From assembly GCF_964355755.1 (NCBI RefSeq), contig NC_092671.1, forward strand, positions 34,916,304 through 34,980,303: a DNA stretch of 64,000 nucleotides, in the 5' to 3' direction. Below are positions 2,148 to 63,256 of the stretch, piece by piece. The notes under the pieces are model-generated. The model searched no databases. It saw only the letters and a list, made by a program, of their open reading frames with translations, and was not told the DNA's origin. Source of the stretch: Antedon mediterranea (taxonomy: Eukaryota > Animalia > Echinodermata). Made by a program: the position numbers and the translations under genes. The first letter of the stretch is position 1; the number at the start of each line of letters is the position of its first letter.

Positions 2148-3689
2148 TTAGGTTTGTAATGTAGCATAAGTTATGCTTTGATCTTTGTCTATTATGTCAC
2201 ATGAGGTGGAAGTTCTAAGGTCCAGCTCAGCATAGTTAAGGCCCTCTGCATTTAGCATGTCTTCGATATCTTGTGTAAAAGGTCTGTTCTCATATAGAAC
2301 TTCATCATTGACCTGTGTATTAATATCACAATTATTGACATCTATTTGATTGGGTATGGATGAATAATAAACATCATCACAGGTGTCTCCACCTTCATCT
2401 ACGTTAGTTGTCACTATAGTCCTTTGAACAACCTCATACAATTGTGTGTTATTGAAGAGTGTTTCTGAGGTTACAGATTTATTGCTGAATATGGTTCTGT
2501 GTAATTTTTGTCGATTAAGAAACACAACTATCAACAATATCACAGATATAGCAATGACGGCCACTCCTAGAATAACTCCGACTATTGGTCCAGATTTGCT
2601 ATTATCAAGTTCAGTTATAGGCCCATTCATACTACTATTTATGTCCTGATCATTGTTAAGAAGTGTTGTTGGAAGAGTGTATATCTGTTGCCTTATGGTC
2701 AAAGTAGCTGATGAATTCCAAATCATTCCATCTTCTCTTACAAAACATGTGATAATAAATAGTTGATTTACAAGCAAAGTATTATTAAGTTGAAGATCAG
2801 TGATGTTCAAAATTGATATCATGGAAGTAAACATGTTTCCAGGAATGTATGGTGAGACCTGCCATTCATACGTAAGATTAGTTGTCTTAAGGTTTCTTGC
2901 AGAACACTGAAAATGAACATTAGTTGACTCTTGCACTGATAGTAATTTAGGTTTAATTTCCACATCAGGTGATAATACATTAAGTCTGATTGTACAGTTT
3001 CTTGTCTCTTCCAAAGCTTCACTGTCAAGATAGCATGTTAATTCAGTGTCATTTCTTTCAATTATAATTTCATTAGATTTTACCCATTTGTAATCGATGA
3101 CATCACTGACTATACTCTCAGCAACATTGACACCAGATATTGTGATGGTAAGATTTGGAGATGTACTTCCATGATCTTCTGAAATACAGTGAAGTCTGAT
3201 TGACTCACCAGTATATAATGGTGTATCAGAAATAATCCACTTAGCATTGTTTTTTAAAAAACAATAAGGAGAGGTTTCAGATGGTGGCTTGTGGACTGTT
3301 AGTTTAGCAGTAGCAGGGTTTGGCTGGAAAGCGAATGCATAATTTTCACTTCTATAACCAAATCGGCACTCGTATAATCCAGCATCAGAAAGCTGTACGT
3401 TTGAAAGTGTTAAATGGTAAGATAAACTGTTAAAAGATACAAAGTATTTGCTTGGAGATACTGATGAATACAACTGGTAAGCTCTGGTAAGATACCGAGT
3501 TTCGTTTTTCCAAAACAAAGTATAAACATTTGTATCATAAGTTGCTTTACAGTTAAAGACAACATCTGAGCCAATTCTTACTTGAGTGTCTTCTGGACCA
3601 GAAACTAAACTCTGGCTGTTAACATTAGAAATAATTGTAGAAATAATATAAGAATATACAACTATTTCAAATAGTCTGACAAACCTCAT
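2148..3689 (-). CDS. IgSF type I membrane receptor, inhibitory-type (3 Ig-like domains, ITIM tail); receptor R1
   Basis: 513-aa single ORF. Signal peptide; V/I-set domain (VVFNC...LFW...LTLSNVQLSDAGLYEC); two further Cys-paired Ig-like domains; uncharged TM IVGVILGVAVIAISVILLIVVFL; tail with VYYSSI, VLYEN, LNYAEL, ITYATL. Confidence 0.9.
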   Translation of the reverse strand: MRFVRLFEIVVYSYIISTIISNVNSQSLVSGPEDTQVRIGSDVVFNCKATYDTNVYTLFWKNETRYLTRAYQLYSSVSPSKYFVSFNSLSYHLTLSNVQLSDAGLYECRFGYRSENYAFAFQPNPATAKLTVHKPPSETSPYCFLKNNAKWIISDTPLYTGESIRLHCISEDHGSTSPNLTITISGVNVAESIVSDVIDYKWVKSNEIIIERNDTELTCYLDSEALEETRNCTIRLNVLSPDVEIKPKLLSVQESTNVHFQCSARNLKTTNLTYEWQVSPYIPGNMFTSMISILNITDLQLNNTLLVNQLFIITCFVREDGMIWNSSATLTIRQQIYTLPTTLLNNDQDINSSMNGPITELDNSKSGPIVGVILGVAVIAISVILLIVVFLNRQKLHRTIFSNKSVTSETLFNNTQLYEVVQRTIVTTNVDEGGDTCDDVYYSSIPNQIDVNNCDINTQVNDEVLYENRPFTQDIEDMLNAEGLNYAELDLRTSTSCDIIDKDQSITYATLQT

Positions 3690-4983
3690 TTTTGATGATA
3701 GATCAATGATTGTGTTTCAGTTTCTATTCAACTTCACTGTGTGCTATGTTGTTTAGTATTTAAACTTGAATTATTTCCTGCCTCGAACAAAATGGAGGGA
3801 GGAGGATTTCCTACACCGTACTATTCAGGATGTGTATGGCCACTTGATACTATCTTTGGTATTGAGTATTATAGGCTGATTATAGAGCATGGAGGTGTAA
3901 CATTTGAGTATAGTAGTACATGTATAGTGTAAAACAAAAGTACCATTTAAATTATTGGGAAATACTGCATATCTGCTCTTTCATACACATTGTATGCTGC
4001 AAATTTTTCCAAATTTAAACAAACGGCCAAAATTGGTTCAAAATCAGACTCGCATTTGAAGGCTTTTAGATAAACAGGCTTCATATATTTAGAATAACTC
4101 TGCAATGAAACCATTCTCAGATAATATAGTACAATGCTTTATCATTTTATTGTAACTGATTAATTTATAGTGTACAGAAAAAGTTTAAAGCTGCCAGATG
4201 AGTAATGTAAAATATTATACTAAAAATTATATGATAATATAACAACAATAAGCACTGTAAAAGAATGAACCAAATTCTACAAAAGGAAATATTATATAAT
4301 AAATTGCATTTCAATGCTTTAGTAAAAAATATTTTATAATTTATGTACTTATATTTAATCTATTATTTTTAGTCAAGGTCTGAATGAGTACTGAACCCAG
4401 CCTTGTATGCAGTGGTCAGTCAATTCAGATAATATAGCTTGCATATTAATTTTAGATATAATTGTTTATAGATGATGCTATTTATTATTGTATAATTTAA
4501 ATTAAGATGTTAATTTAAAGATATTCTAAGAAGCAGTGATCAAGCCAGCCTGTAAGCAAAGTTTCTGGTATATTTTGTTATATCATACTTGATTTATTAG
4601 AAGCATTTCTTAGGACATAGTAGGCCTATATGGACCTAAATTATATTTTAGGATCTTACTTTGTATGACAAAGGATTTTGTATTATTTTTTTTTTCAATT
4701 TTAAATTGAAAGAGTGGAATAATGTAAAATGTTCACATTATTTTTAGTTATTATTAGTTGATTTATTTGAATTTTTTGCAGAAAATCATCCTCTTTGAAA
4801 GGCCTAAATAGTAGAATATTAAATGAAAAAAGTTGCCGGTATTTTAAGTATTGTATTTAAAAAAGAAAACACAGAAAAAGTTTTCATAGTATTGTTCTAT
4901 AGAGGGCTCACTTCAGGTCACCATTTCTAAACCTGAAATTAAGTTTTGTCCCAAAACATGCGTCGTTTTGTCAGTTCTGTTGT

Positions 4984-6498
4984 TTAGTTGTTCAATGTAG
5001 CATAAGTGACGCTTTGCTCTGTGTCTATTATTTCACCTGAAGTGAATTTTCTAAGATCCAACTCAGCATAGTTTAGTCCCTCTGCATTTAGCATGACCTC
5101 AGCATCTCGTGTAAAATTTTTGTTCTCATATAGAGCTTCATCATTGCCATGTGTATTGCTAAGAATATCACAATTGTTGACATCATTTTGATTCGGCACT
5201 GATACATTATCACATGGGTCTTCACCTTCATCTACGTTTGTTGTCATTCTATTTCTCTTTTTAACAACAACTGCATACAACTGTGTTTCATTAACCTGAC
5301 GTATTTCCGATTTGTTAGATTTATTGCTAAATAAGATAATGCATACTTTTTTGCGATTAAGAACAACTATCAACAATATCACGACAGCTATAGCAACAGT
5401 GACTGTTCCTATAATCACTGCAACTATATATGATTCCGAATCGCTGTTTTCAAGTTTAGTTGTAGGCCCATCACTACTATTAAAGTCCTGATCATTGTAA
5501 ATAAATGTCGTTGGTAGAATATCGATCTCTCGTGTTATGGTCAAAGTAGTAGATGAATTCCAAACCATTCCATTTTCTCTTACAAAACATGTAATGATAA
5601 ATAATTGATTTTCAAGTAAAGTATTATTAAGCTTAAGGTCTATGATGTTAAAAATTGATGTCCTGGAAGTAAAGATGTCTCCAGGAACATATGGTGAGAC
5701 CCGCCATTCATACTGGAGATTAGTTGTCTTAAAGTTTCTTGCAAAACACTGGAAATGAACATCATCCGCTTTTTGCACTAATAGTAATCTAGGTTTAATT
5801 TCCACATCAGGTAATAATACATTAAGTCTGATTGTACATGTTTTGATCTCTTCCAAAGCTTCACTATCAAGATAGCATGTTAATTCAGTGTCATTCCTTT
5901 CAATTATAATGTTATCAGATCTTACCTCTTTGTAGTCAATTATATCACTTACAATATTCTCAGCAACACTGACGTCAGATACCATGATTTTAAGATTTGG
6001 TGATGTACTTCTATGGTCTCTTGAATTACAATGAAATGTTATTGACTCCCCAATGTATAACTTTGTTTTTTCTGAAATCCAATTATAATTTCTCTTTAAC
6101 CAACACTTAGGAGAGGTTTCAGATGGTTGCTGATATACTGTTAGTGTGGCAGTAGCAGGTTTTGGATAGAAAGAGTATACATTGTCATTATAAAAATACC
6201 CGCATTCATAGAGTCCAGCATCAGAAAGTTGTACGTTTGAAATCGTTAAACGGTAAAATGAATTGTCAAACGAAACTGAGTATTTGCTTGGAGTATACAC
6301 CGTGTTGCCCCATGTAAGTAACCGAGTTCTGTAATACCAAAGCAATGTATATCCAGTTGCTTTACAACTGAAGACAACATCTGAGCCAATTCTTACTTGA
6401 GCGTCGTCTGGACCAGAAATTAAAGACAGGCTGTTGACAGTAGAAATTAAAATAATTATAATGTAAGCATATACTCTAAATAGTCTGACAAACTTCAT
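4984..6498 (-). CDS. IgSF receptor, inhibitory-type; R2
   Basis: 504-aa paralog of R1. DAGLYEC motif, TM IVAVIIGTVTVAIAVVILLIVVL, tail with LYAVV, LYEN, LNYAEL, VTYATL. Confidence 0.9.
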   Translation of the reverse strand: MKFVRLFRVYAYIIIILISTVNSLSLISGPDDAQVRIGSDVVFSCKATGYTLLWYYRTRLLTWGNTVYTPSKYSVSFDNSFYRLTISNVQLSDAGLYECGYFYNDNVYSFYPKPATATLTVYQQPSETSPKCWLKRNYNWISEKTKLYIGESITFHCNSRDHRSTSPNLKIMVSDVSVAENIVSDIIDYKEVRSDNIIIERNDTELTCYLDSEALEEIKTCTIRLNVLLPDVEIKPRLLLVQKADDVHFQCFARNFKTTNLQYEWRVSPYVPGDIFTSRTSIFNIIDLKLNNTLLENQLFIITCFVRENGMVWNSSTTLTITREIDILPTTFIYNDQDFNSSDGPTTKLENSDSESYIVAVIIGTVTVAIAVVILLIVVLNRKKVCIILFSNKSNKSEIRQVNETQLYAVVVKKRNRMTTNVDEGEDPCDNVSVPNQNDVNNCDILSNTHGNDEALYENKNFTRDAEVMLNAEGLNYAELDLRKFTSGEIIDTEQSVTYATLNN

Positions 6499-6526
6499 TG
6501 TAGGTTTAGCACGAATAAATGGTTGC

Positions 6527-6713: not shown

Positions 6714-8138
6714 TTTTAGGTTGATTATGAAATAAACAAAGTATCAGTTAAACAATAAGGAAATACAATGCCCTTCTTCCATACAATGTGTTTGTTATGC
6801 TGCATTTAATAAATCAAAATAGTTATTGTATATCAAATGTAAGGTGTGTCAGTATTCAATTGGACATAAACCACTTGCATTATTATTATAAGACTTTTCG
6901 ATGGTTATTATACTTATATTTGAAAAAACTGTGCAACAAAATAATTTTCAGATGTAATATAACACAATGCTTTTAATACCTTTTAATTGCAACTGATTAA
7001 TTTATGTTTACAGCAAAATTCTATAATATACATTAATTATTATTATAAAATATCTGTAAAATAAAAATCAATGATAATATAATCAATTAAAAGAATCTAG
7101 AGAAGAAAATATGGTATAAATTATCTTTCATATTTCCCATGTTTTTGACCTTTTTTAATTATCTGTTAATAACAGTAACTGACAGAGAGGCAATAAATAT
7201 CCAGTATTATGCAATTCTTGGTAAATTCTGGAAAACATAATTATAGTTTGTATATTAATACGCCATACGATTACATGACCTATACTTTTCTTATAGTCTA
7301 TATACTTCCTATTTACAATTAATCATAACATGATTTTTTTCAATTTTCTAAATTAGACCATTGTGGTAAATCAAAGCACATATTTCCTGTATTTTTTATT
7401 TTTTTTTTTTTTAAATTAATTAATTTTTTACATACAATTCAAGAAACATTTTCGATAGGCTCAGAAAGACTAGGTTTTATAAATACAACGGCTTCACAGT
7501 ATTCAATATTCACCAATTATTATACTGTTGTAACTGATTAGTTTACTGTGTACAGCAAAAGACTAAAAATAAAAGCTGATTAATAATATAAAATATTGAG
7601 GTACATCTGATTAGTTTAATATAAAAACGATTAGCTACGGAAGTATAAACACAAAGAAGTTACATTTCATACTACTAATATTTTGTAAATATTTACAATC
7701 TATCTTATTCAATCATTAATTTATTGAATTTAATTATAAAAAAAACTAAACGTGTGGCAAAACCCAGCCTTGGCACAGCAACTTTATGAGACATTCTGAT
7801 AATTAGTAAAATTCAGATAATGGTAGCTTGTTTATTAATCTTAGATATGATATATGTTTGTATAGGTAACACTATTTAGGCTACTATTGATCACCTAAAT
7901 TATGCTGGGTTATTTTACTTATACTTTTTTATCATCATCTCTGGTTTTTTGTCGCGTGCAAACGCGACTCTACAGCTCACTATGTCGGTCGGTCGGTCGG
8001 TCAGTAAACACTAACTCAAATTTGCAGCCATGTGACGGTGACCATCACGTGAAATATCTTGTTCAGCAAAGTTTTTTTTCAGATCCAATGTTTAGCCATC
8101 GTGTGTGATACCTTGTAAACAGGTTCTCAGTTCTCATA

Positions 8139-9473
8139 TTAAACTTCATCATCTTCATTGGATACAGATAAATAATAAATAGCATTATCACAAGAAACTC
8201 CACTTTTGTGTACATTAGTTGTCATTCTTATTCTCTTATTAACGAACGAGTCTAATTTATTGTCATTATCCTGGGTTTCTGATTTTATAAATTTATTGCT
8301 GAACAGGATTCGGCGTAATGTTTGCCGATTAATAATAACTATTAACAATATTGCAGTTATAGCAATGACGGCCCTTCCTATAACCACTCCCACTATTACT
8401 AGTTCAGATTTGTTGCTATCAAGTTTAGATAGTCCATCAATATTACTATTAGAGTCCTGATTATCGTCAAGAACTATCGGTGGTAGATTAATATGGATCT
8501 CTCGTGTTATGTTTAAAGTAGTGGATGAATTCCAAACCATTCCATCTTTTCTTACAAAACATGTAATGGTATATAGTTGACTATCGACTAAAGTATTACT
8601 AAGCTTAAGATCTATGATGTCAAAGCTTGACGTTGTGGAATTAACAATGTCTCCAGAAATATATGGTGAGACCTGCCATTCATACTGGAGATTGTTTGTC
8701 TTAAAGTTTTTTGCAGAACAATGGAAATGAACAGCATCTGTCTCTTGCACTGATAGTAATTTAGGTTTGATTTCCACATCAGGTGACAATACATTAAGTT
8801 TGATTGTACAATTTCTTGTCTCATCCAAAGCTTCACTGTCAAGATAGCATGTCAATTCGGTATCTTTCCTTTCAATAATAATTGTATCAGATTTTACCCA
8901 TTTGAAATCAATGACATCACTTACAATATTATCAGAAACAATGACATCAGATACCGTGATGGTAAGATTTGGAGATGTATTTTTATGATCTACTGAGTCG
9001 CAATGAAATATGATTGACTCACCAATGTATAATGGTGTCTCGTAATAAATCCAATTAGCATTGCTTTTTAAAAAACACTGAGGAGAAGTTTGAGATGGTG
9101 GCTGGAGGAACGTTAGTTTAGCAGTCGCAGGATTTGGCTGGAAAGGTAGTGCATTTTTCCTATTATAACCAAACCGACACTCGTATAATCCAGCATCAGA
9201 AAACTGTACGTTTGAAATCGTTAAACGGTAAAATGAACTGTCAAAAGAAACAGAGTATTTGCTTCGAGACGTAGATCGAAACAACCGGTCACCCCTGGTA
9301 AGATACCGAGTTTCGTTTTTCCAATACAACGTGTAATTCATATAAGTCGCTTTACAGTTGAAGACAACGTCTGAGCCGATTCTTACTTGAGCATCTTTAG
9401 GGCCAGAAATTAAATTAAAAATAATTATTATGTAAGCATGTAGACAAATTTCAAATTGTCGGACAAACTTCAT
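8139..9473 (-). CDS. IgSF receptor, activating-type candidate (TM Arg, truncated tail); R3
   Basis: 444-aa paralog. TM VIVGVVIGRAVIAITAILLIVII (AGG codon 8373-8375); ends ...DDEV* before the YEN/LNYAEL region; signal peptide shortened by an in-frame deletion. Confidence 0.82.
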   Translation of the reverse strand: MKFVRQFEICLHAYIIIIFNLISGPKDAQVRIGSDVVFNCKATYMNYTLYWKNETRYLTRGDRLFRSTSRSKYSVSFDSSFYRLTISNVQFSDAGLYECRFGYNRKNALPFQPNPATAKLTFLQPPSQTSPQCFLKSNANWIYYETPLYIGESIIFHCDSVDHKNTSPNLTITVSDVIVSDNIVSDVIDFKWVKSDTIIIERKDTELTCYLDSEALDETRNCTIKLNVLSPDVEIKPKLLSVQETDAVHFHCSAKNFKTNNLQYEWQVSPYISGDIVNSTTSSFDIIDLKLSNTLVDSQLYTITCFVRKDGMVWNSSTTLNITREIHINLPPIVLDDNQDSNSNIDGLSKLDSNKSELVIVGVVIGRAVIAITAILLIVIINRQTLRRILFSNKFIKSETQDNDNKLDSFVNKRIRMTTNVHKSGVSCDNAIYYLSVSNEDDEV

Positions 9474-19819: not shown

Positions 19820-19975
19820 GTTTGTACCATATCTGTTTACTGTGCCATAGAATGACGGTGACCATATAAGCCTCTATAACCTACGTGAACTAGACATTTG
19901 AAGATGTAACTCAACATATTTATTTAGATTTTCCGTTTTGTCATCGTTTGACACCCTGTTAGGTCAGCTCTCATA

Positions 19976-20242
19976 TTAAATTTCATCATTTATAATATCT
20001 TCTGCGTTGAAATCATTTTGATTTGGCATTGAAGAATAATAAACAGCATTATCACAAGGTCCTCTATCTTCGTCTACGTTAGTTATCATTCTTATTCTCT
20101 TATTAACTACCGAGTCTAATTTGTTGTCATTATCCCGTGTTTCTGATTTTATAGATTTATTTCTGAACACGATTCGGTGTAATGTTTGGCGATTTAGAAT
20201 AACTATTAACAATACCACAGCGATAACAACGACGGCCCTTCC
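19976..20242 (-). pseudogene. Fragment (TM + tail) of an Arg-TM type receptor
   Basis: Reads GRAVVVIAVVLLIVILNRQ...NDEI*, homologous to R4. No ectodomain; LINE-derived sequence lies upstream. Confidence 0.85.
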
Positions 20243-21870: not shown

Positions 21871-21874
21871 GAAA

Positions 21875-23300: not shown

Positions 23301-25658
23301 ACTACTCACTGTAGGTGTACGTCATTACTGTGATTTGTGCGCGTAGTAAGTAACTAGGTATTTAAATCTCTATAGTAACAATTTCCTCCTCTAGGACGTT
23401 ATAATAATTTCAAATAATTAATTGAGAAACTCCTTATAAAAATACCTTCTTTAATATTTCTAAATAAGTAATTAAATGAACAATTTCATTTGTTATAAAA
23501 TCCGATATTTAAAAATATATGTCAAGGCATGTGGGTAGGGTTGGGCAGGCCTAGGCTATCTTTAATTTAATCATTTTTGTTTTAAAAACTACAAAATATT
23601 ATTAATTAGAATTACTCCTACTTCTTTAATATAATTTTAAATTTTTTTTAATAATAAAATGTTTTATTATTCAATGCTATGTCCTGGCCTACATCCATAG
23701 TATGCCTTACTGTTCGATTTTAAATATCATTTTATTCTTACCTTTATTATTTATTCGTGGAAATTTTGTATTGTTGCACCACAAAATAAGAGAGGCATAA
23801 TGCGTTATTTTATGATAAATATAGTAAATATAATACAATTTACAAATAATGTTTGATAAATTCAATCGAAATAGTTTGTAAAGAAACAAAGCACAGAAAC
23901 AAGGAGATGATGTCTCTTCACCGTGTTGTCGGAGCTAGCGCTAGTTGTATACTGGAGTTTCTTAGTTGTGTACACAAACTCTATTCCGCGAAAAAAATTG
24001 TGACGTCATACGTGTCATTAGGACAATCAAAGATGAATTATATATTTTGCGTCATTCACTCACAGGTGTCCTCTTTCTAGAAGTTTATTAGAAGATAATT
24101 TTAAAACTAATTAAATTTATTGCAATTTATTTCCCGATCATTATACATATATTTGTATTATCCACAAATAGGCATATTATTTTAAATAAAACAAAGATCT
24201 TTGATTGAAACAAAAATAAAAGTTGTATTTCTTACAGTTCCCAAGGAAACAAATAATACGTAACATAACTTTGGTTTTTTGTTTTGGTGTGACTAGATGA
24301 CGCTTTTTAGCAAGGAAGATTGATTACCAAATTTGTTCATCTGATGTGTTACAATGTGTTGCCATTTTACTGTAACCTATTCATTTATTGTGTAAACGAA
24401 ATTCTGAAATATACCAGATTGATAATTAATGTAAATATTATACCATACCCATAGGATAAATATTATAATCTACAGAAGAAAACTTAAATTATATTTCTTA
24501 GTTAACTCATCATTCGCGATTAATTCAAGTTTATATTTCTAGTTTTCATAATAATTCGCCGTGAGAGGTAAGCTTTCTTATACATGTTGTAAACAAATCA
24601 TCAGAGGTCGTAATTTTTTTTAAATTGTTCAAGATTATCTCTTTTTTAATTATAATTATATTATTTATTATAAATAATCTAATCGAAAGACCAAATATTA
24701 AATTTTTTTTTAATTCTTTCAACTACCTTGTGATGTGGTTATGCATGATGTAGAATTTTCTTAGAATCAGAGTATGGGATTTGTTTCAATTTCCTTTAAA
24801 ATCTACCACACTTCCTCACAGTTTCCTCCTAAGTTTTTGAGTAAAGAAAAATGTCGGTAGTTATCATAACTTGTTAACTTCCTTATATGCATAGGTAACA
24901 CAAACATTATATTTCAACAATTTTTCCAGTTTTTAATTATAAAGAAAAAGTTCGGCAAAATTATATTAATCAATTATTTAATTAATTCTATATTATCATA
25001 TGGTATACATTATATGCATAATAACACATACATTTTTATAATATTCTGTCGTTACGCGTGAAATACATTCTAAATATTGTGTACAATTAATCATCTATAT
25101 ATAAATTTACGTAAGGGCAAAAATCGGTAAATCGTGCGTTATTTCTAGAATGTTTACTCGATGGTATATAAAGTTGGTTCGTACTTTCGGTACTAATTTT
25201 AACCACTATATTGATACATCAGATATATAATAATATAAAAACAATTAGTAGATAAATTAAGAAAGAATTTACTGAAGAAACCATGTTTAAATTACTTTTT
25301 ATTTATTTTATAATCTGTCGACTTATTAATATATTATAGTAGCGTGACCAGGGAAGAGTGAACTAAAGGCGTGGTAAATCCCCAGCCGTGTATGCAGCTG
25401 TAATTGACGTAGGTAGCATTTATAGACGACAACTCATCTAGATATGCAGTTGATAGTAGGCCTACATTCAGATAATACGGCTTGTTTATCCTTGACTCTA
25501 TTTACTATTGTACTTAAATTATTTTAATTATAGTTTGTATCATATCTGTTTACTGTGACATAGAATAACTCTCTAGCCTACGTGAACTAATTTGAAGATG
25601 TAGTTATTTAGATCCTCCGTTTTGTCATCGTTTAACACCTGTTAGGTCAGCTCTCATA

Positions 25659-25849
25659 TTAAACTTCATCATTTATAATATCTTCTGCGTTGACATCATT
25701 TTGATTTGGCACTGAAAAATAATAAACAGCATTATCACAAGGTCCTCTATCTTCGTCTACGTTAGTTCTCTTATTAACTACCGAGTCTAATTTCTTGTCA
25801 TTATCCTGTGTTTCTGATTTGATAAATTTATTGCTGAACACGATTCGGC
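25659..25849 (-). pseudogene. Tail-only fragment of the truncated-tail receptor class
   Basis: FSNKFIKSETQDNDKKLDSVVNKR...NDEV*, near-identical to the R4 tail. Confidence 0.8.
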
Positions 25850-26201
25850 CAGCCTTGTCCCAGCAACTTTATGATACAGAGACATTCTGATAATTAGTAA
25901 AATTCAGATAATAATAGCTTGTTTATTAATCTTAGATATATGTTTGTATAGGTAACACTATTTAATTGATCACTTAAATTATGATGGTTTACTTTACTTA
26001 TTGTTTTTATATCATCATCTCTGGATTTTAGTCGCGTGCAAACGCGACTCTGCAGTTCACTATGTCGGTCGGTTGGTCGGTCGGTCGGTAAACACTAACA
26101 AATTTGCAGCCATGTGACGGTGACCATCACGTGAAATATCTAGTTCAGTTTTTTTAGATCCAATGTTTAGCCATCGTGTGTGATACCTTGTAAACAGGTT
26201 C

Positions 26202-26870
26202 TCAGTTCTCATATTGAACTTCATCATCTTTATTTGATACTGATAAATAATAAATAGCATTATCACAAGAAACTCCACCTTCGTGTTCGTTAGTTGTCAT
26301 TCTTATTCTCTTATTATTTATTAACGAACGAGTCTAATTTGTTGTCATTATCCTGGGTTTCTGATTTTATAAATGTATTGCTGAATAGGATTCGGCGTAA
26401 TGTTTGCCGATTAAGAATAACTATTAACAATATTGCAGTTATAGCAATGACGGCCCTTCCTATAACAACTCCCAGTAATACCAGTTCAGATTTGCTGTTA
26501 TATTATAGTTTATATATATGCCCGTCAATACTACTATTAAAGTACTGATCATCGTTAAGAAGTGTCGTTGATAGATTAACATGGATCTCTCGTGTTATGT
26601 TTAAAGTTGACGATGAATTCCAAACCATTCCATCTTCTATTACAAAACATGTAAGATCTGTGATGTCAAAAATTGACGTTGTGGAATTAACAATGTCTCC
26701 AGGAATATATGGTGAGATCTGCCATTCATACTTGAGATTATTTGTCTTAAAGTTTCTTGCAGAACACTGGAACTGAACATCACCTGTCTCTTGCACTGAT
26801 AGTAATTTAGGTTTAATTTCCACATCAGGTAATAATACATTAAGTCTGATTGTACAATTCTTTGTCTTTC
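26202..26870 (-). pseudogene. 5'-truncated, frameshifted Arg-TM type receptor (domain 3, TM, tail)
   Basis: PDVEIKPKLLSVQE...YEWQISPY, internal deletion before TCFV, frameshifts, TM LGVVIGRAVIAITAILLIVIL; its 3' flank matches that of R3. Confidence 0.85.
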
Positions 26871-29396
26871 AGCCTTCCATGTGTTTTTCAACTCAATACT
26901 AATGGTATCGGTTATAAAAGCCTAGTGTCATAAATATATCATTGAAATCAGGAAATAAGCATTATGTCGCCGTTCAGTAGTTCAAGTGGTTATTTTCAGT
27001 TTTACTTTTTTTTTCTAACCATACGACGCATCTTTTGTAGAGTAGAGTACGGAAGTTCAGATGGAAACGTACCGCATAGTATTGTAATAATTTTGTCTAA
27101 TAATATCAAGAGAATTGGAAGGTATATTCACATTTTAATTTTCATTAGTAGATTTACCTCATCCGACTAAATACAGCAGGCCTACCTGAAGAAGAAAAAA
27201 TATCCTACTAGCACCACCACCCGTAGACACAATTTAAGAATCTATAAAAAATCGAAGAAGAAGGGATTGAAGTCGAGATTGATAACCGGAATGAATTGCC
27301 TTATGAAGTAGTCAATTTACGAAGTTTAACAAAAGATTGGAACAGTGAAGTGAAGGTATTTTTTTACTAAGATGCATAATTGACGGTGGTAAACTAGTCC
27401 TATTTAGTAGGCCTACACACTTCAAATACAAGTTAATTAGTATGCATTTCATCAGGGGATGGGAACCTCTTACCCACTGCAGTTCTCCAGCAATATCCAT
27501 CTTTCTTTCTTTTTTTCTTTAGAGGGTACTGGACTGTAAGTTTGTAGAAATATAGTAGATCGTTAGAAATGATTGATATGAAGAGCATTGTATTGTAGTT
27601 TTATTATTTTTTTATTATTAGGTAACAGTAGTAGTAGTAGTAGTTTCTTTTTGTATTTATGACTCCGCTTGAGTAAGACGTGCCAAACGAGAGCTCCGAT
27701 ATTACTTTTTCATAATGGCTACAACACGTTCCAAAAAGCCTGACAACGTAAGTTTTGAAGAATTTGTTAAAGAATCTCTTTCCAATATCATGAAATCGCA
27801 AAATAACCTTAAGAGTAAACTAGCTGAATCTATTAAATTCAACGAAGACCGAATTATTGCTCTTGAAAAGGCTCAGTCGCGTTACGAAGCTAGGCAGGCG
27901 GAATTCGTCGACGATTTGCATACAGCTCACAACACAATTGCGTCTATGCAGGCTGAGCTAAACAAGGCTGAACGCTTCTCCAGGAGAAATAACATTCGCA
28001 TTGTGGGAATCGCTAAATCTGATAACGAAAACCCAATCAACATTGTAGAAGATTTCTTAGCCACTCATTTTAAAATTAAACCAACGATTGAGAGAGCCCA
28101 TTTTGAATTTGAATTTTTTTTTTTTTGAATTTCTTTATTTAGTAATCAATGTTAAAAAACAATAAATACAATGCATAAAAAGTAGAAAAACAATTGCACA
28201 GAAACACAGGCCTTGATTACAAGGAATGCCAAGAAAAGTTAAAAACTTATTTCCACTTGGGTCCTAAAAACAAGGAACTGATAAAAAAACATACAAATTA
28301 CATCAAAAGAAACTTTGAAAAAAATGGTATAAAAATATAAAAGTTTAAAAATAACAATTTATCTAACACTTATCAAAATTTAATCCTAATTTACAGTTTT
28401 AAGAAAGATTGATTATAAGAGATATATACAAAAATTTATTTATTACACTAAAGTAAAAAAATTACAATTAATTTTAACACTTATTTATTTATATTTATTC
28501 TTAATTTACAGATTACAGAAAATTATTGATTTATTGCATTATACTAAAACCTTTTTATAATTTATTGCACATGAGAATTAAATGTTGAGGAGATGCTTTT
28601 TTAGTGCCAATTTAAAATGTTCTAATGAAATATTACTTTTAACATATAATGGTATAGCGTTCCAGGCTTTTATTGAGTTGTAATAAAAAGGTTTTTTTCG
28701 CAGCCCTTAATTATTGGAATCCTATAATTTAAATTTGTGGCACTACGTGTCCTTCTAGAGTGGTAATCAACAATACAAACAAAGTTACTATTTAGATACA
28801 TTGGAGCAGAATTATTAAAAATTGTATATACATTGCATAAACATTTGAACTTAACTCTTTCTGGGACGTTCAGATATCCGATTGATTTCAGCTCAGATTG
28901 ACCAACATGAGATCTCGAATCTGATTGAGTAATAAATCTGAATATTTTGTTTTGAGTAGTCTGAAGCCTGTGTTTGTGTACCTGAGAAGAGTCATTATAC
29001 CATGCTGGGGAAGCATAGTCAAAAAGAGGCTGAATTAGAGCTGAAGAGAGAAGTTTCCTACTACCAAAATCAAGATATTTGGATTGTCTGTACATAAATT
29101 TTAAACGGCTATTTGCGCTAGTTATTACTGAATTGGCAATCAGATTCCCAGAAGCCTGTTGGTCAATCTGGACACCTAAATACCTTACCGACTCTGTTGA
29201 TTTTATATCACATTCAAGGGCATTGAGTTGGAATGAGACATTTTTTATCGACGTTTCGTTTCCAACAGAATGCATTCAGTTTTACCTGGATGAATTGTAA
29301 GTCGGTTATCAATAAGCCACTCATTACAAAGATTTAACGAAGCACTAAGTACAGCCGAAATAGTATTAGGGTTTCGGTCTGAATACAAGATGGCAC

Positions 29397-43904: not shown

Positions 43905-44724
43905 CTTCAACCCTTAATAAACAAAAACAAATTGTAAAATATAAAACAATTACAAAAAATAAATAGAAAATAACTAAATAATATGTAAATAGAAAATAAC
44001 TAAACAATTTGTTTATAGAAAATAACTCAAATTGCACTCTTCGTTAATTAGTTGTTTTTTTTTCTAAATTTACTTAAATACGATTATTTACTTATTTATC
44101 TTCCACCCTTAATAAAGAAAAAATAATTTGTAAAATAGAAAATAACTAAAACATAAATGCATATTTGTCTATTTATCGTCGATCGTTATCGTCCTAGTGT
44201 AAATAGGCCTTTAAACATGGTTCATTCATTCATTCATTCATAATGGTATATTTATTAAAATTATCTTCACAGAAAAACTGAATTTTGACAATTTTTTACA
44301 TTAGTAAAAGGTACTTAAAATATTTAAAATGTTTTAAAAAAATAGCATAAAATAACATCAAAAATTGAGAACCACACAATAATGGTAATACACAGTAAAT
44401 AAAAGTGAGAACTAAAAAACATAAATTAAATACATCATTCAATAAGGGCAAACTTCATTTTACTATTATATTAAAAAACTGTTTTTAAAATTTAGTGTTA
44501 GTTGCAATTATAAAAAAATGAAACCACAAACACATTCGAGGCCCAAAAAGTGTTTCCTTAATGTCCACTAACCAGAAATCTATTGACCTCTTAATATGGG
44601 TTTGCGGCAGAAAAAACAAAAACAAATATACCAAAATGAACAAATTGACCTGGACTCAAGAAATTGAGAAGAATGGAAAATTTAGCAGCCAACGTTTTAT
44701 TAATGAAAACTATGTTGTTCCATT

Positions 44725-45299
44725 AATACGGGTTGCAGCAACAATTTGTGTTGGCTGTAGTGTAAAGCATAAAGTGCCTCTCGTATTATTTCTGTAAGGT
44801 GTCCCTTAATAGGGGTTGCATCAACAATTTGTGTTGGCTGTAGTGTAAAGCATAAAGTGCCTCTCGTATTATTTCTGTAAGGTGTCCCTTAATAGGGGTT
44901 GCATCAACAATTTGGTGTTGGCTGTAGTGTAAAGCATAAAGTGCCTCTCGTATTATTTCTGTAAGGTGTCCCTTAATAGGGGTTGCATCAACAATTTGGT
45001 GTTGGCTGTAGTGTAAAGCATAAATTGCCTCTCGTATTTCTGTAAGGTGTCCCTTAATAGGGGTTGCATCAACAATTTGGTGTTGGCTGTAGTGTAAAGC
45101 ATAAATTGCCTCTCGTATTTCTGTAAGGTGTCCCTTAATAGGGGTTGCATCAACAATTTGGTGTTGGCTGTAGTGTAAAGCATAAATTGCCTCTCGTATT
45201 TCTGTAAGGTGTCCCATTAATAGGGGTTGCATCAACAATTTGGTGTTGGCTGTAGTGTAAAGCATAAACTGCCTCTCGTATTTCTGTAAGGTGTCCCTT
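44725..45299. repeat. Minisatellite, 7 units of 81-84 bp
   Basis: Unit AATAGGGGTTGCATCAACAATTTGGTGTTGGCTGTAGTGTAAAGCATAAATTGCCTCTCGTATTTCTGTAAGGTGTCCCTT; a single unit at 60370-60450. Confidence 0.95.
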
Positions 45300-47147
45300 A
45301 ATAGGGGTGTTCCAAAGAAGTTTCAACGATAGAAAACACAACTAAACGACAATATTTAGCCTATAATCCTTTTATCTTAGTAATAACTTGAGATGAGATA
45401 TCAAAAATCTATCGGGAAAAGCAATATCAAATGAAAATAACAGTCAGAAAGACCAAGCTGTCGAAAAACACTATCATATAAATATATAATATAAATATTA
45501 CCTTGAATATTGATGATTTTCTGCTTTGAAATAATACTTGCTTTCCGCCTTGTTAAGATGCTTAGAATTGATAGTATCTTGTATAGTATACCTTGTGGAT
45601 CTCTGGCTGATGTTTTCAGGGAAAGTTGCTTTTATAGACGAATGACTTTAGCCCGTTGTTGTTTTACCCATTATTTGCACACTGTAACCCAATACATGCT
45701 TTCCGTCTTGTCAAGTTGTTTATAATAAATAATACCATGTCAATGTGTATATATATCGGCTTAGTTTTAAAATCGTCAGGTGGTTGATGTTTTCTGGGAA
45801 AGTTACTTTGATACATGTCATTAACTCGCTGTTTTTTTTTTATCAGATTGAATATTTATAAGAAATGAAGTCGACGACCTCACCTAATACTTGCTTTCTG
45901 TATTATATATCAAAAATTGTTTATAATAATGTAATAATAATAATAATAATGATGTTTTCGCTGAAAGTTCTTTTCTACACGGATACCCGGATGTTCTACC
46001 GTTATTTGTTGAGTCGACGACCTCACCACGACCTAGTCCACATTATATAGCAAACTTAAGAAAAAACTAATTTCCAACATTTTTCCAGTTGAAAACTTCT
46101 GCAAACTGCAGAAAACTGGCTAGCAGAACTTAAGCCATGTCTGCACTTAGCACACTTTACCTTTCATTCACTTTAAATTCATGTCTGCAAAGTTTGCTAG
46201 TGCAGCTCACTTCTGCAAACTTGTTTTCTGCAATTTTTCAACTGATCTGCACTAGTAAAACTTGTTTTGACTAAAGCTCTGTCTACACTGTCAAACTAGT
46301 TTGATTAAAAATAAGTGTGATGTGCCCACATAAGGTAGTATACTGATATGCCCAAATATGGTAGTTATATGACATCATCATGCCCATATATGGGCATATC
46401 ACATTATTTGTCATATAAAGTTTTATAATGTAAATAGGGCCTAAATCGGAGTTTGCTCAAGTTTGCAACAAATGTTTTTTGACAAACTAGTTTGCTGATG
46501 TGTGGTGAACACAGCCAATCAAATCACTTTTGTTGTAGGCATGTTAATCTGCAGATGGACAAGTCAGCCTCTAGTAAGAGAAGACAAGTAAAAGACAAGT
46601 TTTTCAAAGAAAGGTTTTCCAAAGCCAGTGCAGTCAAAGACAAACTTCGGCAGAAAACAGAAAACAAGTTCTCAGAAATCTACACTAGCACACTTTAGTT
46701 TACGGTGTATAAAGACTAGAAGAACTCTACTTATAGGCAGTTTATTCTCGTTTAAACCAAAATGGCTTCGATAGTGTTAACTCAAGTTTCACACAAAATA
46801 ATAATTCAATTTATTTTACATTTATATTTATTTTACCAAGAATACTTGTTTTTATTACATCCGTTGATAACCTGTATTATTATTACTTTAAAAAATCGTT
46901 TTTCTTCTTAATCCCCTTCCCCCACCCCCTACGCATATTGAAATAGGCCTATTAAACTTAGACGCGATAAACCTGCAACAATTACCGGTTGATTGTGTAG
47001 ATAAATTGCATCTAATATTTCCTAATTGGTAATTAGTCTACGTAGCATAAATATTATAAGATCAGGGAATAGTAAAATTACACTCTTCCTGGTTGGTGCT
47101 GCAATAAAATCGCTTGGAAATATTTTATTAAAATATATGAAATAATT

Positions 47148-47268
47148 AACACATGGTGGCATTGCATGGCAAAGAGTAGCTAGAGACAGAAGTAATGGTC
47201 AATTGGTGAAGAGGCCTTCGTCCTGCAGTGGAAAGAAATAGGTTAAGAAGAAGAAGAAAAAGAATAAT
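47148..47268 (+). mobile_element. 3' tip of an RTE-like LINE (also 62340-62482)
   Basis: WQRVARDRSN...EAFVLQW-like end followed by an (AAG)n(AAT)n tail whose length differs between copies. Confidence 0.55.
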
Positions 47269-47287
47269 TAATATCAATGAAACGTAT

Positions 47288-47710
47288 CTAAGAAAAATAT
47301 GCACAGGGTTGAGCGGGACCTGCATCATCGTCGTAGTCTTGCCTTCGTGTTCCTATCAGTAGAAAGGCTGTGTAATAATTATTTCAATCACATCAAACAG
47401 CGATATTGATAATTGAATGGTTAATTATTTTGACTTCTGAAAGTATCGCTTAAATTCAGTTCAGAAATAATAAGAAAAAGTATATACTTTCTTTTAATTT
47501 TTCCTCTTTTTTATATTGGCAAACTACCAATATGGTAGTATAAGTGGAATCATTCACTGTCCTCCTTAAAGGAGGAAGCCGGTTCACAACATATACACAA
47601 GATGCTTTACATAAACAAGTCTTTGAGGGTGAAATAAATACATTTTCATACATGTCCTTAACATTATCGCATAATTATTAACACGATTTAAATAACGTAT
47701 GATGTCCTAT
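47288..47710 (-). pseudogene. Prepropeptide pseudogene B2
   Basis: Exon relic TRRQDYDDDAGPAQP; about 330 bp including most of the signal exon is missing relative to the 62.9-63.2 kb copy. Confidence 0.55.
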
Positions 47711-49520
47711 AACATATTAATATTAAAACAATTATATTGCTATCTTTAGATAGTATTTGAAGATGCTTCCTCCTCGTATAGGCATACACACAAGTATTTC
47801 CACCCAATCACAAGTAACAGTTTAAATGACCCATCGATTGTACGTTACTACTTGTATTTGGTTTTTTCCATCACACTCCAGGGGTATGACATTTTGATTT
47901 CTAACCTCAATTTTTTTTAAACATCGATTAGTTTTGTAATCATTATTAATGAATAATTCATTGAAATTATATACAATATTTTCAATAAATAATTTAAAGT
48001 TTTCCTGGTGGTTTTTAATGCGGCCTAGACACTTTAGGGTACGTGTACCGACACCTTGACATTGGCCTAGACACTTTAGGAGACGTGTACCGACACTGAC
48101 AATGGCCTAGACACTTAAGAGGTATCGAACCTTTGCCTTGCCTTTAAGGCGTCATCTAAACAATTCGCCCTGGCCTTTGATTACCCTTAGATTACCTAAT
48201 AAACAAATCCTCAATTCTATGATGACATTAGTTTTTTACTTATTCAGAGTTTGCGAAGTCCCAATTAATCTTATATGTTCCATACCATGTACAGTTTATT
48301 GACTTAGTGAATAGAGAGAATACATCTTGCTAAATCTCTGAGCTATGAATCTCTGATAACTAGGTCCACTCCATAGACGTGACGGTGTTAATTTTAAAAA
48401 TTATTTAAAAATTCCTTTTTTTTTTTTGGTTGATCTCGCCAACAATATACACGACTTGAAGTGCTTGGTAGTTTGTGTGTCATCAAACAAAATCCAACCT
48501 CAATTAATCATGGCTAGTAAGAATTGATGTATAGCACACACGACGAGATCAATAATATTTACAAAAGCCTTGCTTACGCGTGCGCATTAGCTTTTTTCTT
48601 TTAGCGATGTCGCGCCATGACGGCGCTATAACATTTTATCTCCGCATTTTCATTCCCAACTAGAGAGGGCGCATTCTGATTTCTATGCTTTTGTTACTTG
48701 AAATAGAGAAAGAGCACAAAAGTCGGAAATACATACGAAAATCTAATTCTAAAAGTAACTGCTGGTTAGACAAATGGGTCGTACCTATCCCAGAATATTA
48801 GTTTTGCTCCTCCAATAGGGCTTCTTACTGAAGATCGATATCAATATTTAGCGTCCTTGATACCGCAGAAACGCACTAGCGCGCTCGCGTTGTCAAAACA
48901 GATTTTTTTTTTCTATACTAAAGCAGAAATGAGATAAGACGAACTTGTTCATCTTAAAGCAGGGTGCTGTTCGTCTTAATATTTAATACAAAAATAAGCA
49001 AATCTTTTTTCTTAAATATATAATAAATTGGAATTAAGCAAAATTAAGGATTTAAGGCAAAGTTAAGACGATTTTTTCCTAAGCAAAACCGGCCCCTGGT
49101 AAGAATTTATATAAGAAAACATGATTAAGATACATAATTGCAATGCTTTGGAAAAAATGTTATTTATTAAATCTGTCGATAGTGGCGTGACCAGGGAAGT
49201 GTGAAACCTCTTCCCTGGCGTGACTAAAGGCGTGGTAAAACCCCAGCCTTGTATGCAGCTATAATTGACGTAGGTGACATTTCTAGAAAACTCATCCATC
49301 CTGATATGCAGTTGATAGTACATTCAGATAATACGGCTTATTCTTGAGTCTATTTACATTGTATGTGATCACACACATTATTTTAATTATAGATTTATCA
49401 TATCTCTTTACTGTGACATAGAATGACTCTCTATCCTACGTGAACTAGACATTTGAAAATGTAACTCAACATAGTTTTTGAGATCCTCCGTTTTTTCACC
49501 ATGTTAGGTCAGCTCTCATA

Positions 49521-50906
49521 TTAAACTTCATCATTTTTAATGTCTTCTGCGTTGACATCATTTTGATTTAGCACTGAAGAATAATAATTAGCATTATCAC
49601 AAGAAATTCCACCTTCGTCTACGTTAGATGTTATTCTTATTCTCTTATTAACTACCGAGTCTAATTTATTGTCATTATCCTGTGTTTCTGATTTGATAAA
49701 TTTATTGCTGAACACGATTCGGCGTAATGTTTGCCGATTAATAATAACTATTAACAATATAACAGTTACAGCAACGACGGCCCTTCCTATAACCACTCCC
49801 ACTATTACTAGTTCAGATGTTTTGTTATCAAGTTTAGATATAGGCCCATCAATACTACTATTAAAGTACTGATCATCGTTAAGAAGTGTCGTTGGTAGAT
49901 TAACATGGATCTTTCGTGTTATGGTCAAAGTAGTGGATGAATTCCAAACCATTCCATCTTCTCTTACAAAACATGTAATGATAAATAGTTGATTTTCAAG
50001 CAAAGTGTTATTAATCTTAATGTTTGTGATATTCAAAATTGACATCGTGACATTAAAGATGTCTCCAGGAACATATGGTGAGATATGCCATTTATACTGG
50101 AGATTGTTTGTCTTAAAGTTTCTTGCAGAACACTGGAAATGAACAGCATCTGTCTCTTGCACTGATAGTAATTTAGGTTTAATTTCCACATCAGGTAATA
50201 ATACATGAAGTCTGATTGTACAGTTTCTTGTCTCTTTCAAAGCTTCACTGTCAAGATAGCATGCTAATTCAGTGTCATTTTTTTCAATCACAATTTCATA
50301 TGATTTTACCCCTTTGTAATCAATGACATCACGTACAATATTCCCAGCAACACTGACACCATTTTCTGTGATATTAAGATTTGGTGATGTACTTCCATGA
50401 CCTTCTGAATAGCAATAGAATATGATTGACTCACCAATGTAAAAGTTCTCGGACAAAATCCGTGTATTATTTCTTGTTAATAAACACCGAGGAGAGGTTA
50501 CAGATGGTGGCTGGTGTACTGTTAGTGTAGCAGTAGCAGGAGTTGGCTGGAAAGAAAATGCACTGTTTTTATTATAACCATACCGGCACTCGTATAATCC
50601 AGCATCAGAAGGCTGTACGTTTGTAATTGTTAAACGGTAAAATGAATTGCCAATCGAAACTGAGTATTTGCTTTTAGATACATATTGACACAACCGGTCA
50701 CCTCGGGTAAGATACCGATTTTCGTTTTTCCAAAGCAATGTATAATAATACGCATTATAAGTTGCTTTACAGTTGAAGACAACATTTGAGCCGATTCGTA
50801 CTTGAACGTCTTCTGGACCAGAAATTAAAGTCTGTTGGCTGTTGACAGTAGAAATTAAAATAATTATTATGTAAGCATATACTCCAAATAGTCTTACAAA
50901 CTCCAT
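49521..50906 (-). CDS. IgSF receptor, activating-type candidate (TM Arg, truncated tail); R4
   Basis: 461-aa paralog with intact signal peptide and three Ig-like domains. TM VIVGVVIGRAVVAVTVILLIVII (AGG 49782-49784); ends ...NDEV*. Confidence 0.88.
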   Translation of the reverse strand: MEFVRLFGVYAYIIIILISTVNSQQTLISGPEDVQVRIGSNVVFNCKATYNAYYYTLLWKNENRYLTRGDRLCQYVSKSKYSVSIGNSFYRLTITNVQPSDAGLYECRYGYNKNSAFSFQPTPATATLTVHQPPSVTSPRCLLTRNNTRILSENFYIGESIIFYCYSEGHGSTSPNLNITENGVSVAGNIVRDVIDYKGVKSYEIVIEKNDTELACYLDSEALKETRNCTIRLHVLLPDVEIKPKLLSVQETDAVHFQCSARNFKTNNLQYKWHISPYVPGDIFNVTMSILNITNIKINNTLLENQLFIITCFVREDGMVWNSSTTLTITRKIHVNLPTTLLNDDQYFNSSIDGPISKLDNKTSELVIVGVVIGRAVVAVTVILLIVIINRQTLRRIVFSNKFIKSETQDNDNKLDSVVNKRIRITSNVDEGGISCDNANYYSSVLNQNDVNAEDIKNDEV

Positions 50907-52342: not shown

Positions 52343-53767
52343 TTATCTAAGATCCAGCTCAGCATAGTTTAGTCCCTCTGCATTTAGCATGTCCTCAACA
52401 TCTCGTGTAAATGTTCTGTTTTCATATAGAACTTCATCATTGCTCTGTGTATTGTTAATAATATCACATTTATTGACATCATTTTGATTCGGTACTGATG
52501 AATAATAAACAGCATCACAAGGATCTTTAACATCATCTACGTTAGTTGTCATTCTATGTCTCATTTCCACAACAACTGCATATAATTGTTTGTCATTAAC
52601 TTCTGTTTCTGAGTTTATAGTTTTATTTCCGAGTCTGCGTAATTTTTGACGATTAAGACAAATAATTATTAACAATATCATAGCTATTCCAACAGAGACT
52701 GTCCCTGTAATCACTGTAACTATGTATGATTCTGAATCTCTGTTGTTAAGAAGTAGTGTCGGTAGAATAATTTGGATCTCTTGTGTTATGTTCAACGTAG
52801 TAGATGAATTCCAAACCATTCCATCTTCTCTTACAAAGCATGTAATGATAAATAGTTGATGTACAAGTAAAGTATTATTTAGCATAAGGTTAGTGATGTT
52901 CAAAATTGACGTTGTGGAATTAAAAATGTCACTAGGAACATATGGTGAGACCTGCCATTCATACTGGAGATCGTTTGTCTTAAAATTTGTCACAAAACAC
53001 TGGAAATGAACAGCATCTGTCTCTTGCACTGATAGTAATTTAGGTTTAATTTCCACATCAGGTAATAATACATTTAGTCTGAATGTACAGTTTCTTGTCT
53101 CTTTCAAAGCTTCACTGTCAAGATAGCATGTTAATTCAATGTCGTTTCTTATAATTGTAATTTCATCAGATTTTACCCATTTGTAATTAAATTCATCGTA
53201 TTCAATATTCTCAGCAACATTGACATCAGATTCCGTGATAGTAAGATTTGGAGATGTACTTCCATGATCTTTTGAATCGCAATAAAATCTGATTGACTCA
53301 CCAATGTATAATGGTGTATAAGGATTAATCCACTTATTGCTATATAAATAACAATGAGGAGAGGTTTCAGATGGTTGCTGATATACTGTTAGTGTGGCAG
53401 TAGCAGGTTTTGGCCAGAAAGAGTATGCATTGCCATTATAAACATACCCGCATTCGTATAATCCAGCATCAGAAAGCTGTACGTTTGAAATCGTTAAACG
53501 GTAAGATGTATTGTAAGTGGAAACAGAGTATTTGCTTGCAGATATAGATTGAAACAACCAGGCACATTGGGTAAGAAACCAAGTTTCGTTTTTCCAAAAC
53601 AAGGTATAATAATTCGCATTAAAAGTTGCTTCGCAGTTGAAGACAACATCTGAGCCGATTCTTACTTGAGCGTCTTCTGGACCAGAAATTAAAGTCTGGA
53701 TGTTCACAGTAGAAATTAAAATAATTATTATGTAAGCATATACTCTAAATAATCTGACCAACTTCAT
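52343..53767 (-). CDS. IgSF receptor, inhibitory-type lacking the last ITIM; R5
   Basis: 474-aa paralog with neutral TM. Tail has LYAVV, VYYSSV, VLYEN, LNYAEL, then TAA; the relic frame STSFDIIDTEQN follows the stop. Confidence 0.87.
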   Translation of the reverse strand: MKLVRLFRVYAYIIIILISTVNIQTLISGPEDAQVRIGSDVVFNCEATFNANYYTLFWKNETWFLTQCAWLFQSISASKYSVSTYNTSYRLTISNVQLSDAGLYECGYVYNGNAYSFWPKPATATLTVYQQPSETSPHCYLYSNKWINPYTPLYIGESIRFYCDSKDHGSTSPNLTITESDVNVAENIEYDEFNYKWVKSDEITIIRNDIELTCYLDSEALKETRNCTFRLNVLLPDVEIKPKLLSVQETDAVHFQCFVTNFKTNDLQYEWQVSPYVPSDIFNSTTSILNITNLMLNNTLLVHQLFIITCFVREDGMVWNSSTTLNITQEIQIILPTLLLNNRDSESYIVTVITGTVSVGIAMILLIIICLNRQKLRRLGNKTINSETEVNDKQLYAVVVEMRHRMTTNVDDVKDPCDAVYYSSVPNQNDVNKCDIINNTQSNDEVLYENRTFTRDVEDMLNAEGLNYAELDLR

Positions 53768-63250: not shown

Positions 63251-63256
63251 ATAACA

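Follow-up and report, generated by a model that had tools for sequence, protein, structure and literature searches.

Genes and relics at the locus

The 64,000-nucleotide stretch of Antedon mediterranea DNA analysed here (contig NC_092671.1, positions 34,916,304 to 34,980,303; hereafter the window) contains a tandem family of immunoglobulin (Ig) receptor genes, which is divided by its membrane segments and cytoplasmic tails into two classes. The guanine-plus-cytosine content of the window is 32%. Five single-exon open reading frames (ORFs) on the minus strand, termed R1 to R5, each encode an entire type I membrane protein, such that the coding part contains no introns. The protein identity among these five tandem genes is 65-71%. 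Three further pieces of the family, relics A, B1 and B2, and no others are detected when the window is searched by tblastn. These genes and relics are listed below by window position. TM represents the transmembrane segment, ITIM an immunoreceptor tyrosine-based inhibitory motif, aa amino acids, and D1 to D3 the Ig domains.

2148..3689, minus strand: R1, intact, 513 aa, three Ig domains; TM with Gly-Val; tail with LYEVV, YEN, LNYAEL and ITYATL; ITIM class
4984..6498, minus strand: R2, intact, 504 aa; TM with Gly-Thr; tail with LYAVV, YEN, LNYAEL and VTYATL; ITIM class
8010..8138, minus strand: DNA behind the R3 stop, by alignment a decayed former tail with YEN, a second stop and an out-of-frame NFAEQD (from NYAELD)
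8139..9473, minus strand: R3, intact, 444 aa; TM with Gly-Arg (Arg367); LDSFV; 63-aa tail with IYYLSV; Arg class, sub-lineage I
8373..8375, minus strand: AGG codon of the R3 TM Arg
19855..20242 (approximate), minus strand: relic A, without ectodomain, beginning at the TM Gly-Arg; LDSVV; tail to EI-stop-YES-stop
25358..25849, minus strand: relic B2, tail only; LDSVV, EV-stop-YES-stop
26100..26871, minus strand: relic B1, with the last part of D2, an internally deleted D3, a stalk interrupted by a stop, TM with Gly-Arg, a 7-nt frameshift insertion and EVQYEN-stop
49400..49520, minus strand: DNA behind the R4 stop, by alignment a decayed former tail with YES, a second stop and an out-of-frame LKNYVELH (from LNYAELD)
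49521..50906, minus strand: R4, intact, 461 aa; TM with Gly-Arg (Arg375); LDSVV; tail of 72 aa that holds no strict ITIM; Arg class, sub-lineage II
49782..49784, minus strand: AGG codon of the R4 TM Arg
52343..53767, minus strand: R5, intact, 474 aa; TM with Gly-Thr; tail with LYAVV, VYYSSV, YEN and LNYAEL and its own stop; ITIM class

The initial annotation of this DNA described five paralogs that share an ectodomain of three Ig domains. This description agrees with the five open frames and with the AlphaFold2 model of R4 (residues 25-395), which was built on a 64-row alignment and has a mean predicted local distance difference test score of 87.2. The model has a disordered stalk in addition to three Ig domains, and a single helix spans residues 364-394. 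Pfam recognises D1 alone, as the best stretch. The top structural matches of the model are Necl-4 (Z 16.9, root-mean-square deviation 7.2, 271 aligned residues) and D1-D2 of Rst (Z 16.6, root-mean-square deviation 2.6, 194 aligned residues), followed by Neph1, SYG-1, DIPs, nectins and SIRP-alpha (Z 14.8), with identities of 13-20%. The structure-atlas neighbours are generic members of the Ig superfamily (IgSF) only. The predicted fold settles the architecture of these proteins, not their function.

Two classes of membrane segments and tails

The residue that follows the TM Gly is Val in R1 and Thr in R2 and R5, but Arg in R3, R4 and relics A and B1. The Arg codon is AGG in all four copies that hold this position. 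The initial annotation reported the same difference and extended it to two TM-containing relics. Both relics indeed have the Arg, but relic A starts at Gly-Arg, so that it represents the inner part of the TM only. In both R3 and R4, the best hydrophobic window of 23 residues has the Arg at its ninth position, and in R4 the Arg is located within the predicted helix. Because 14 hydrophobic residues follow the Arg, it cannot sit outside the membrane span, a location that had been named as one that would refute the assignment. The sequence around the Arg is VIGR in R3, R4 and B1 (GVVIGR, in which the Arg lies 8 residues into the hydrophobic stretch). The summed TM insertion scale of the Arg class is -2.7 to -2.9, which is near that of R5 (-3.3), suggesting that membrane insertion is still favourable.

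The tails differ between the two classes as well. The proximal Tyr of the ITIM class is replaced by Asp in all five Arg-class copies (LYxVV to LDS(V/F)V), as had been noted for this motif. All five copies have TGA after YEN or YES, and four of the five have TAA just before it. Both R3 and R4 stop at the point given in the initial annotation, but the triplet behind the stop, given there as YEN, is YES in R4. YEN is a Grb2-type site. The remaining copy, relic B1, has CAA at 26214-26216; this codon is CTA in the ITIM genes and TAA in the rest of the Arg class. This CAA represents either a reversion or an intermediate from a stage when the class first ended after YEN.

The tails of R1 and R2 close with LNYAEL and, 22 residues later, I/VTYATL, exactly as annotated. 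R5 ends after LNYAELDLR, and its distal motif is gone through its own stop. R1, R2 and R5 each contain two strict ITIM matches, a number reached by 1-2% of shuffled tails of the same composition. R4 contains no strict ITIM, and R3 contains one match to it, IYYLSV (8% of shuffles). No ITAM (immunoreceptor tyrosine-based activation motif) pattern is found in the tails of R1 to R5, and R3 and R4 each keep one YY pair. The YY motif had been recognised in R3 and R4, without mention that the R3 motif fits the strict ITIM pattern or that the motif also occurs in R1, R5 and the related proteins of Anneissia japonica. The YY motif is ancestral.

Homologues and the ancestral form

A profile of the five window proteins was compared with 1.84 billion representative proteins at E <= 0.001. 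This search gives 348 matches, the best of which (P0001, E 5.9e-93) covers the whole length (profile positions 1-492). Twenty matches were looked up for spanning the ectodomain; all 15 named proteins among them are of echinoderms, the best being from the crinoid A. japonica, and a second Anneissia paralogue is found with P0001 as the query. This result supports the earlier view that the genome is not that of a vertebrate, and by homology the host is probably a crinoid. Homologues of the family occur in Antedon, Patiria, Asterias, Acanthaster, Diadema, Holothuria and Amphiura, some of them automatically named kin of IRRE-like or nephrin-like. The echinoderm proteins have the same three-domain ectodomain and cysteine pattern as the window genes, and several sea-star tails contain LxYADL. 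Sea-star members compared as P0007/P0008 and P0023/P0024 are also long- or short-tailed, without a TM charge: the tails of two Patiria proteins are 128 and 71 aa long, and that of P0024 is 46 aa long.

The two Anneissia proteins (XP_033109427.1 and LOC117110815) are 36-46% identical to the window genes. In both, the tail is long and includes the proximal Tyr, VYYS, YEN, LNYADL and TTYSTV, and neither has a TM charge. R1 to R5 are joined in a single clade next to the Anneissia pair (100/100), indicating that they are a lineage-specific expansion. A charged residue in the TM core is found in none of 76 TM-bearing homologues (380-900 aa with a TM-like window, from 153 stored proteins), which are cluster representatives behind which rare charged paralogues could be hidden. 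The Arg class is seen solely in this window and in contigs of sequencing runs under two species labels. Within these comparisons, nothing links the family to the vertebrate KIR, LILR, SIRP, CD300 or Siglec clusters. Its nearest named relatives are echinoderm proteins, and SIRP is among the fold matches at 14-20% identity, next to nectins, DIPs and titin. Orthology to such a cluster, which according to the initial annotation would remove the novelty of the family, is not indicated by this comparison, which was made without a vertebrate tree.

Origin and age of the Arg class

In the tree of the TM-plus-tail DNA, the five Arg-class copies form one clade with a bootstrap value of 100 on a branch of 0.156, and relic B1 is the sister of R3 (bootstrap 100). 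When the 15 possible five-gene trees are compared for this region, all 12 that lack the R3+R4 group are rejected. R3 and R4 are 90.0% identical over the TM and tail but only 58.1% identical behind the stop, where the ITIM-class genes keep 82-89% identity (from a multiple alignment of the copies). This difference suggests that the truncation is old, and that the released DNA decayed nearly past recognition, separately in two lineages.

A trace of the former tail is detected behind both stops. The alignment z is 4.0-4.9 for R4 against R1, R2 and R5. For R3 it ranges from 1.5 to 3.5, with 3.5 against R1 (1 of 500 shuffles) and 1.5 against R2. The trace is weak for some pairs (B1 against the ITIM genes, z 0.8-1.6; R3 against R4, z 2.3). 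Together with the tree and the tails of the Anneissia outgroup, this trace supports the ITIM form as ancestral and the short-tailed Arg form as derived from an ITIM ancestor. The stops of R3 and B1 are each followed, after about 130 nt, by a high-copy short repeat with GGTC/ACCG runs (about 7945-8002 and 26000-26100), which marks that sub-lineage.

The ectodomains do not follow the two classes in the same way. Of 69 informative sites in the region from signal peptide through ectodomain to stalk, only one puts R3 and R4 together. The best ectodomain tree separates them, while the tree that follows the classes has a p value of 0.26 in the approximately unbiased (AU) test. Of the separate trees for ectodomain and TM/tail that the initial annotation called for, the latter firmly joins R3 and R4 and the former is compatible with either arrangement. 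A test for mosaicism gives p values of 0.026 for identical neighbours and 0.084 for compatible neighbours. The Arg-class ectodomains are as similar to those of the ITIM class as the latter are to each other. The cassette of Arg, Asp and stop probably arose once and was then duplicated into at least two sub-lineages, either with exchange of ectodomains or in a near-simultaneous radiation.

The DNA upstream of R3 and B1 is 86-94% identical to that upstream of R5 (9890-12557, 26880-27610 and 54872-57910), and is thus closer than the synonymous sites of R3 and R5, for which the ectodomain synonymous divergence (dS) is 0.26. This likeness represents either shared repeats or a hybrid nature of R3 and B1, with an R5-type 5' flank.

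Maintenance of the open reading frames

Eight duplicated non-coding segments, chosen by hand from a self-comparison of the window, contain 102 frameshifting indels per about 500 substitutions. At this rate, neutral evolution would be expected to produce 56 frameshifts between the coding sequences (CDS) of R3 and R4 and 5-8 in the 258-nt cassette. None is present in the cassette, and both frames are open. The chance that the cassette would have none is 0.0004-0.005. A codon-aware alignment of R3 and R4 contains six in-frame indels. A frame-blind alignment also gave five gaps of non-triplet length, which are taken as cancelling pairs or artefacts, because the frames are open and the codon-aware alignment is in frame. 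In a simulation, 0.6-0.9% of neutral copies remain without a stop at 0.1 substitutions per site. The changes private to the R3 ectodomain are 14 synonymous and 14 non-synonymous (p 0.003), with 8 and 0, respectively, in D1. The stalk of R4 (residues 332-366, about 49809-49913) shows 14 non-synonymous changes and 1 synonymous change between R3 and R4, the highest ratio of non-synonymous to synonymous rates (dN/dS) of any region, in small numbers.

A contig of 579 nt from run X8, which is under the second species label, spans the Arg-class TM on 49613-50100 without gaps. Of its 22 differences from R4, 18 are listed; they touch 17 codons and change the residue in 15 of them, but none affects the Arg or Asp codon and none creates a stop. 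Contigs of run X9, which is guessed to be RNA, include the coding parts of R1 and R2 and one low-depth contig with a tail of the relic A type (all eight listed letters match relic A). They do not cover the R4 Arg codon and hardly touch the TM and tail of R3. Contigs show neither absence nor level, and nothing is concluded from this run. No splice joint across the stop of R3 or R4 is present among the joints listed, and splicing around it may still occur. A stop in a single-exon CDS would not trigger exon-junction-dependent decay of the transcript, so that the short form can be made. On balance, the sequences suggest that the Arg class has been kept as protein.

Other elements of the window

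A recent segmental duplication (42908-48169 and 58546-64000) is 95-97% identical between its copies. Because the first copy lies just below R4, a further Arg-class gene may lie just past the end of the window. Three broken non-LTR (long terminal repeat) retrotransposons are located between relic A and R4, at 21489-23305, 28670-33325 and 33751-36802. In these elements, Pfam detects RVT_1 at 21913-23025 and 30993-31802. It also finds endonuclease domains (31708-33072, 34822-35382) and, weakly, a PHD finger (33014-33325). A tandem repeat of 81 bp with 7.2 copies at 97% occupies 44719-45308, and leaves a minus-strand ORF of 178 aa with 27-residue repeats. About one unit of this repeat is found in the duplicate, near 60361-60459.

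Comparison with known paired receptors

TREM and SIRP-beta have a TM Lys for their partner DAP12. This DAP12-type Lys is also the residue of the activating KIRs (PMC2213150), but the corresponding residue of the Arg class is Arg in all four copies. Inhibitory receptors gave rise repeatedly to activating KIR and Ly49 receptors, which gained a TM charge and a stop that removes the ITIMs and made use of an adaptor that already existed (PMC2213150). In paired opposing receptors, the described pattern is one of class-specific tails on homogenised ectodomains (PMC3210942). The family described here resembles KIR2DS/3DS and Ly49 in that the inhibitory form came first, that a basic TM residue is combined with a stop, that the cassette may have spread onto other ectodomains, and that many copies of the activating type are disabled. 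It differs in that the residue is Arg instead of Lys, that the CDS is contained in one exon, and that many changes lie on the branch, whereas the KIR switch consisted of two. In addition, DAP12 and FcR-gamma are known partners for KIR, and there is no sign of orthology. In LILRA2, PIR-A, NKp46, GPVI, OSCAR, Fc-alpha-R and Xenopus XFL TM1, as in R3 and R4, the outer half of the TM contains an Arg, the tail is short, and the cluster includes long-tailed paralogues with an uncharged TM (PMC2413239). However, partners of FcR-gamma have NxxR where their TM begins, at its N-terminus (PMC2413239), in place of which the Arg class has the internal VIGR.

Among invertebrates, inhibitory/activating pairing is stated as background in PMC2413239. 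Botryllus FcoR proteins have ITIMs or hemITAMs (PMC12582321, PMC12065747), Hydractinia Alr tails have ITAMs or ITIMs (bioRxiv 2022.03.04.482883), and an oyster NCAM1 has two ITIMs (PMC11841013). Like the family described here, FcoR and Alr are clustered invertebrate IgSF proteins with putative inhibitory and activating members. They also show exchange between ectodomains and tails, as may have occurred here. Their activating members, however, bear their own ITAM or hemITAM, while R3 and R4 have none, and crinoids are solitary. In the available text, the word 'charged' is absent from both Botryllus papers and is used in the Alr paper just for an Ig salt bridge. Likewise, 'charged' and 'paired' are absent from the available text of a 2025 review of invertebrate IgSF proteins (PMC11999971), and ITIM, ITAM and 'paired' from that of a 2026 review covering echinoderm immunity (PMC13428168). 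Searches of the literature, mostly of open-access texts and therefore weak as evidence of absence, give no report of this family or of a charged-TM short-tailed receptor class in an invertebrate. Hagfish APAR, a paired Ig receptor with a charged TM in a jawless vertebrate, would be a precedent.

A possible paired recognition system

By analogy with these receptors, the two-class cluster may be a system for paired recognition. Its ITIM forms would act as a brake, and its Arg forms would signal the opposite through a predicted partner with an acidic membrane residue. We give this interpretation a probability of about 0.45. According to it, binding of a ligand would lead to phosphorylation of the ITIM members and to recruitment of Src homology 2 (SH2) phosphatases, as has been shown in human T cells for an amphioxus ITIM receptor (PMC8211107). 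The Arg members would bind similar ligands, but without three to four of the tyrosine motifs, including the YEN site. The Arg members would need a partner with an acidic TM to signal, and such a membrane partner remains putative.

Several observations weigh against this interpretation, and the adaptor is its weak point. The division of activating immune receptors into one chain that binds the ligand and has a basic TM residue and another that signals and has an acidic one is described as a hallmark of jawed vertebrates, and its ancestry is little known (PMC4536121). The KIR switch relied on an adaptor that already existed (PMC2213150). The NxxR motif of the FcR-gamma type is absent from the sequences, and R3 retains IYYLSV, which matches the strict ITIM, within the Arg class. 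The Arg is one of many changes on its branch. By our estimate, the odds that its codon would remain unchanged by chance over the approximately 0.25 substitutions per site joining the four copies are about even, so that its constancy carries no information. The ectodomains do not reject the class tree and are at most weakly mosaic. Adaptor-coupled activation is plausible, but nearly as likely is an Arg class that functions without activating. It would be a decoy or competitor that lacks the tail and, without braking, binds the ligand or microbe of the ITIM forms, and the Arg would be a passenger tolerated on the cassette or would influence packing next to GxxxG. This possible alternative would explain the open frames and the likeness of the ectodomains without an adaptor of a kind not described outside vertebrates. 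It is also consistent with the non-significant invariance of the Arg, the absence of NxxR and the favourable TM insertion, and R5 is an example of tail truncation without an Arg. It accounts less well for the lack of a charged TM core in all 76 homologues, and for the fact that the Arg comes together with a tail deprived of the proximal Tyr and of both distal motifs, a combination that marks activating KIRs.

Other observations question whether the Arg class is maintained at all. The dN/dS value between R3 and R4 is 0.76 (Fisher p 0.10) and that of the cassette is about 0.65 (p 0.33), neither being significantly below 1. The changes private to R4 are 15 non-synonymous and 3 synonymous, and 7-8 residues are deleted in frame from the signal peptide of R3. 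Of the five Arg-class copies, three are relics, as compared with none of three ITIM-class copies. The signs of neutral decay that were to refute a working Arg class are therefore partly present, in the dN/dS value and the relics. These facts would be expected if the Arg class were a dead-end branch. One damaged ancestor would then have passed on its Arg, its change from Tyr to Asp and its stops as lesions, R3 and R4 would be decaying, and their ectodomains would have been recently supplied or kept open by recombination with working ITIM genes. We regard this as improbable, because the cassette stayed open and free of frameshifts while the DNA behind the stop decayed to 58% identity, because D1 of R3 shows the 8:0 excess of synonymous changes, and because a gap-free Arg-class contig occurs under the second species label. 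The dN/dS values of ITIM-class pairs are also high (0.58-0.71). Finally, the nearest folds of the R4 model are those of adhesion molecules (Necl-4, Rst, Neph1 and SYG-1), which, like the automatic names of the echinoderm homologues, would suit a nectin/Kirre-like adhesion or cell-sorting code outside immunity, with tail classes that tune adhesion signalling. This is improbable in our judgement: the identity to those structures is only 13-20%, SIRP-alpha reaches Z 14.8, and tandem birth-and-death, ectodomain dN/dS values of 0.5-0.9 and paired ITIM tails are commoner in immune recognition.

Implications

Inhibitory/activating pairing is already known in invertebrates, and just the route through a charged TM would be new. 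At present it is rather unlikely that evolution in a crinoid, apart from that of vertebrates, produced an activating receptor which uses a membrane charge pair to pass its signal to a distinct adaptor. If it is true, echinoderms have a signalling subunit with an acidic TM, which would be either an unrecognised relative of the ancestor of FcR-gamma, DAP12 and CD3-zeta or a product of convergence, and the TM of R4 would be a bait to find it. A long-kept, derived class with an Arg in the TM and a short tail in an echinoderm predicts one findable protein, which would make the origin of such adaptors testable. If there is no adaptor, the cluster is still a clear example of an ITIM family that gives rise to twins without tails, among animals whose Ig receptor biology has hardly been described.

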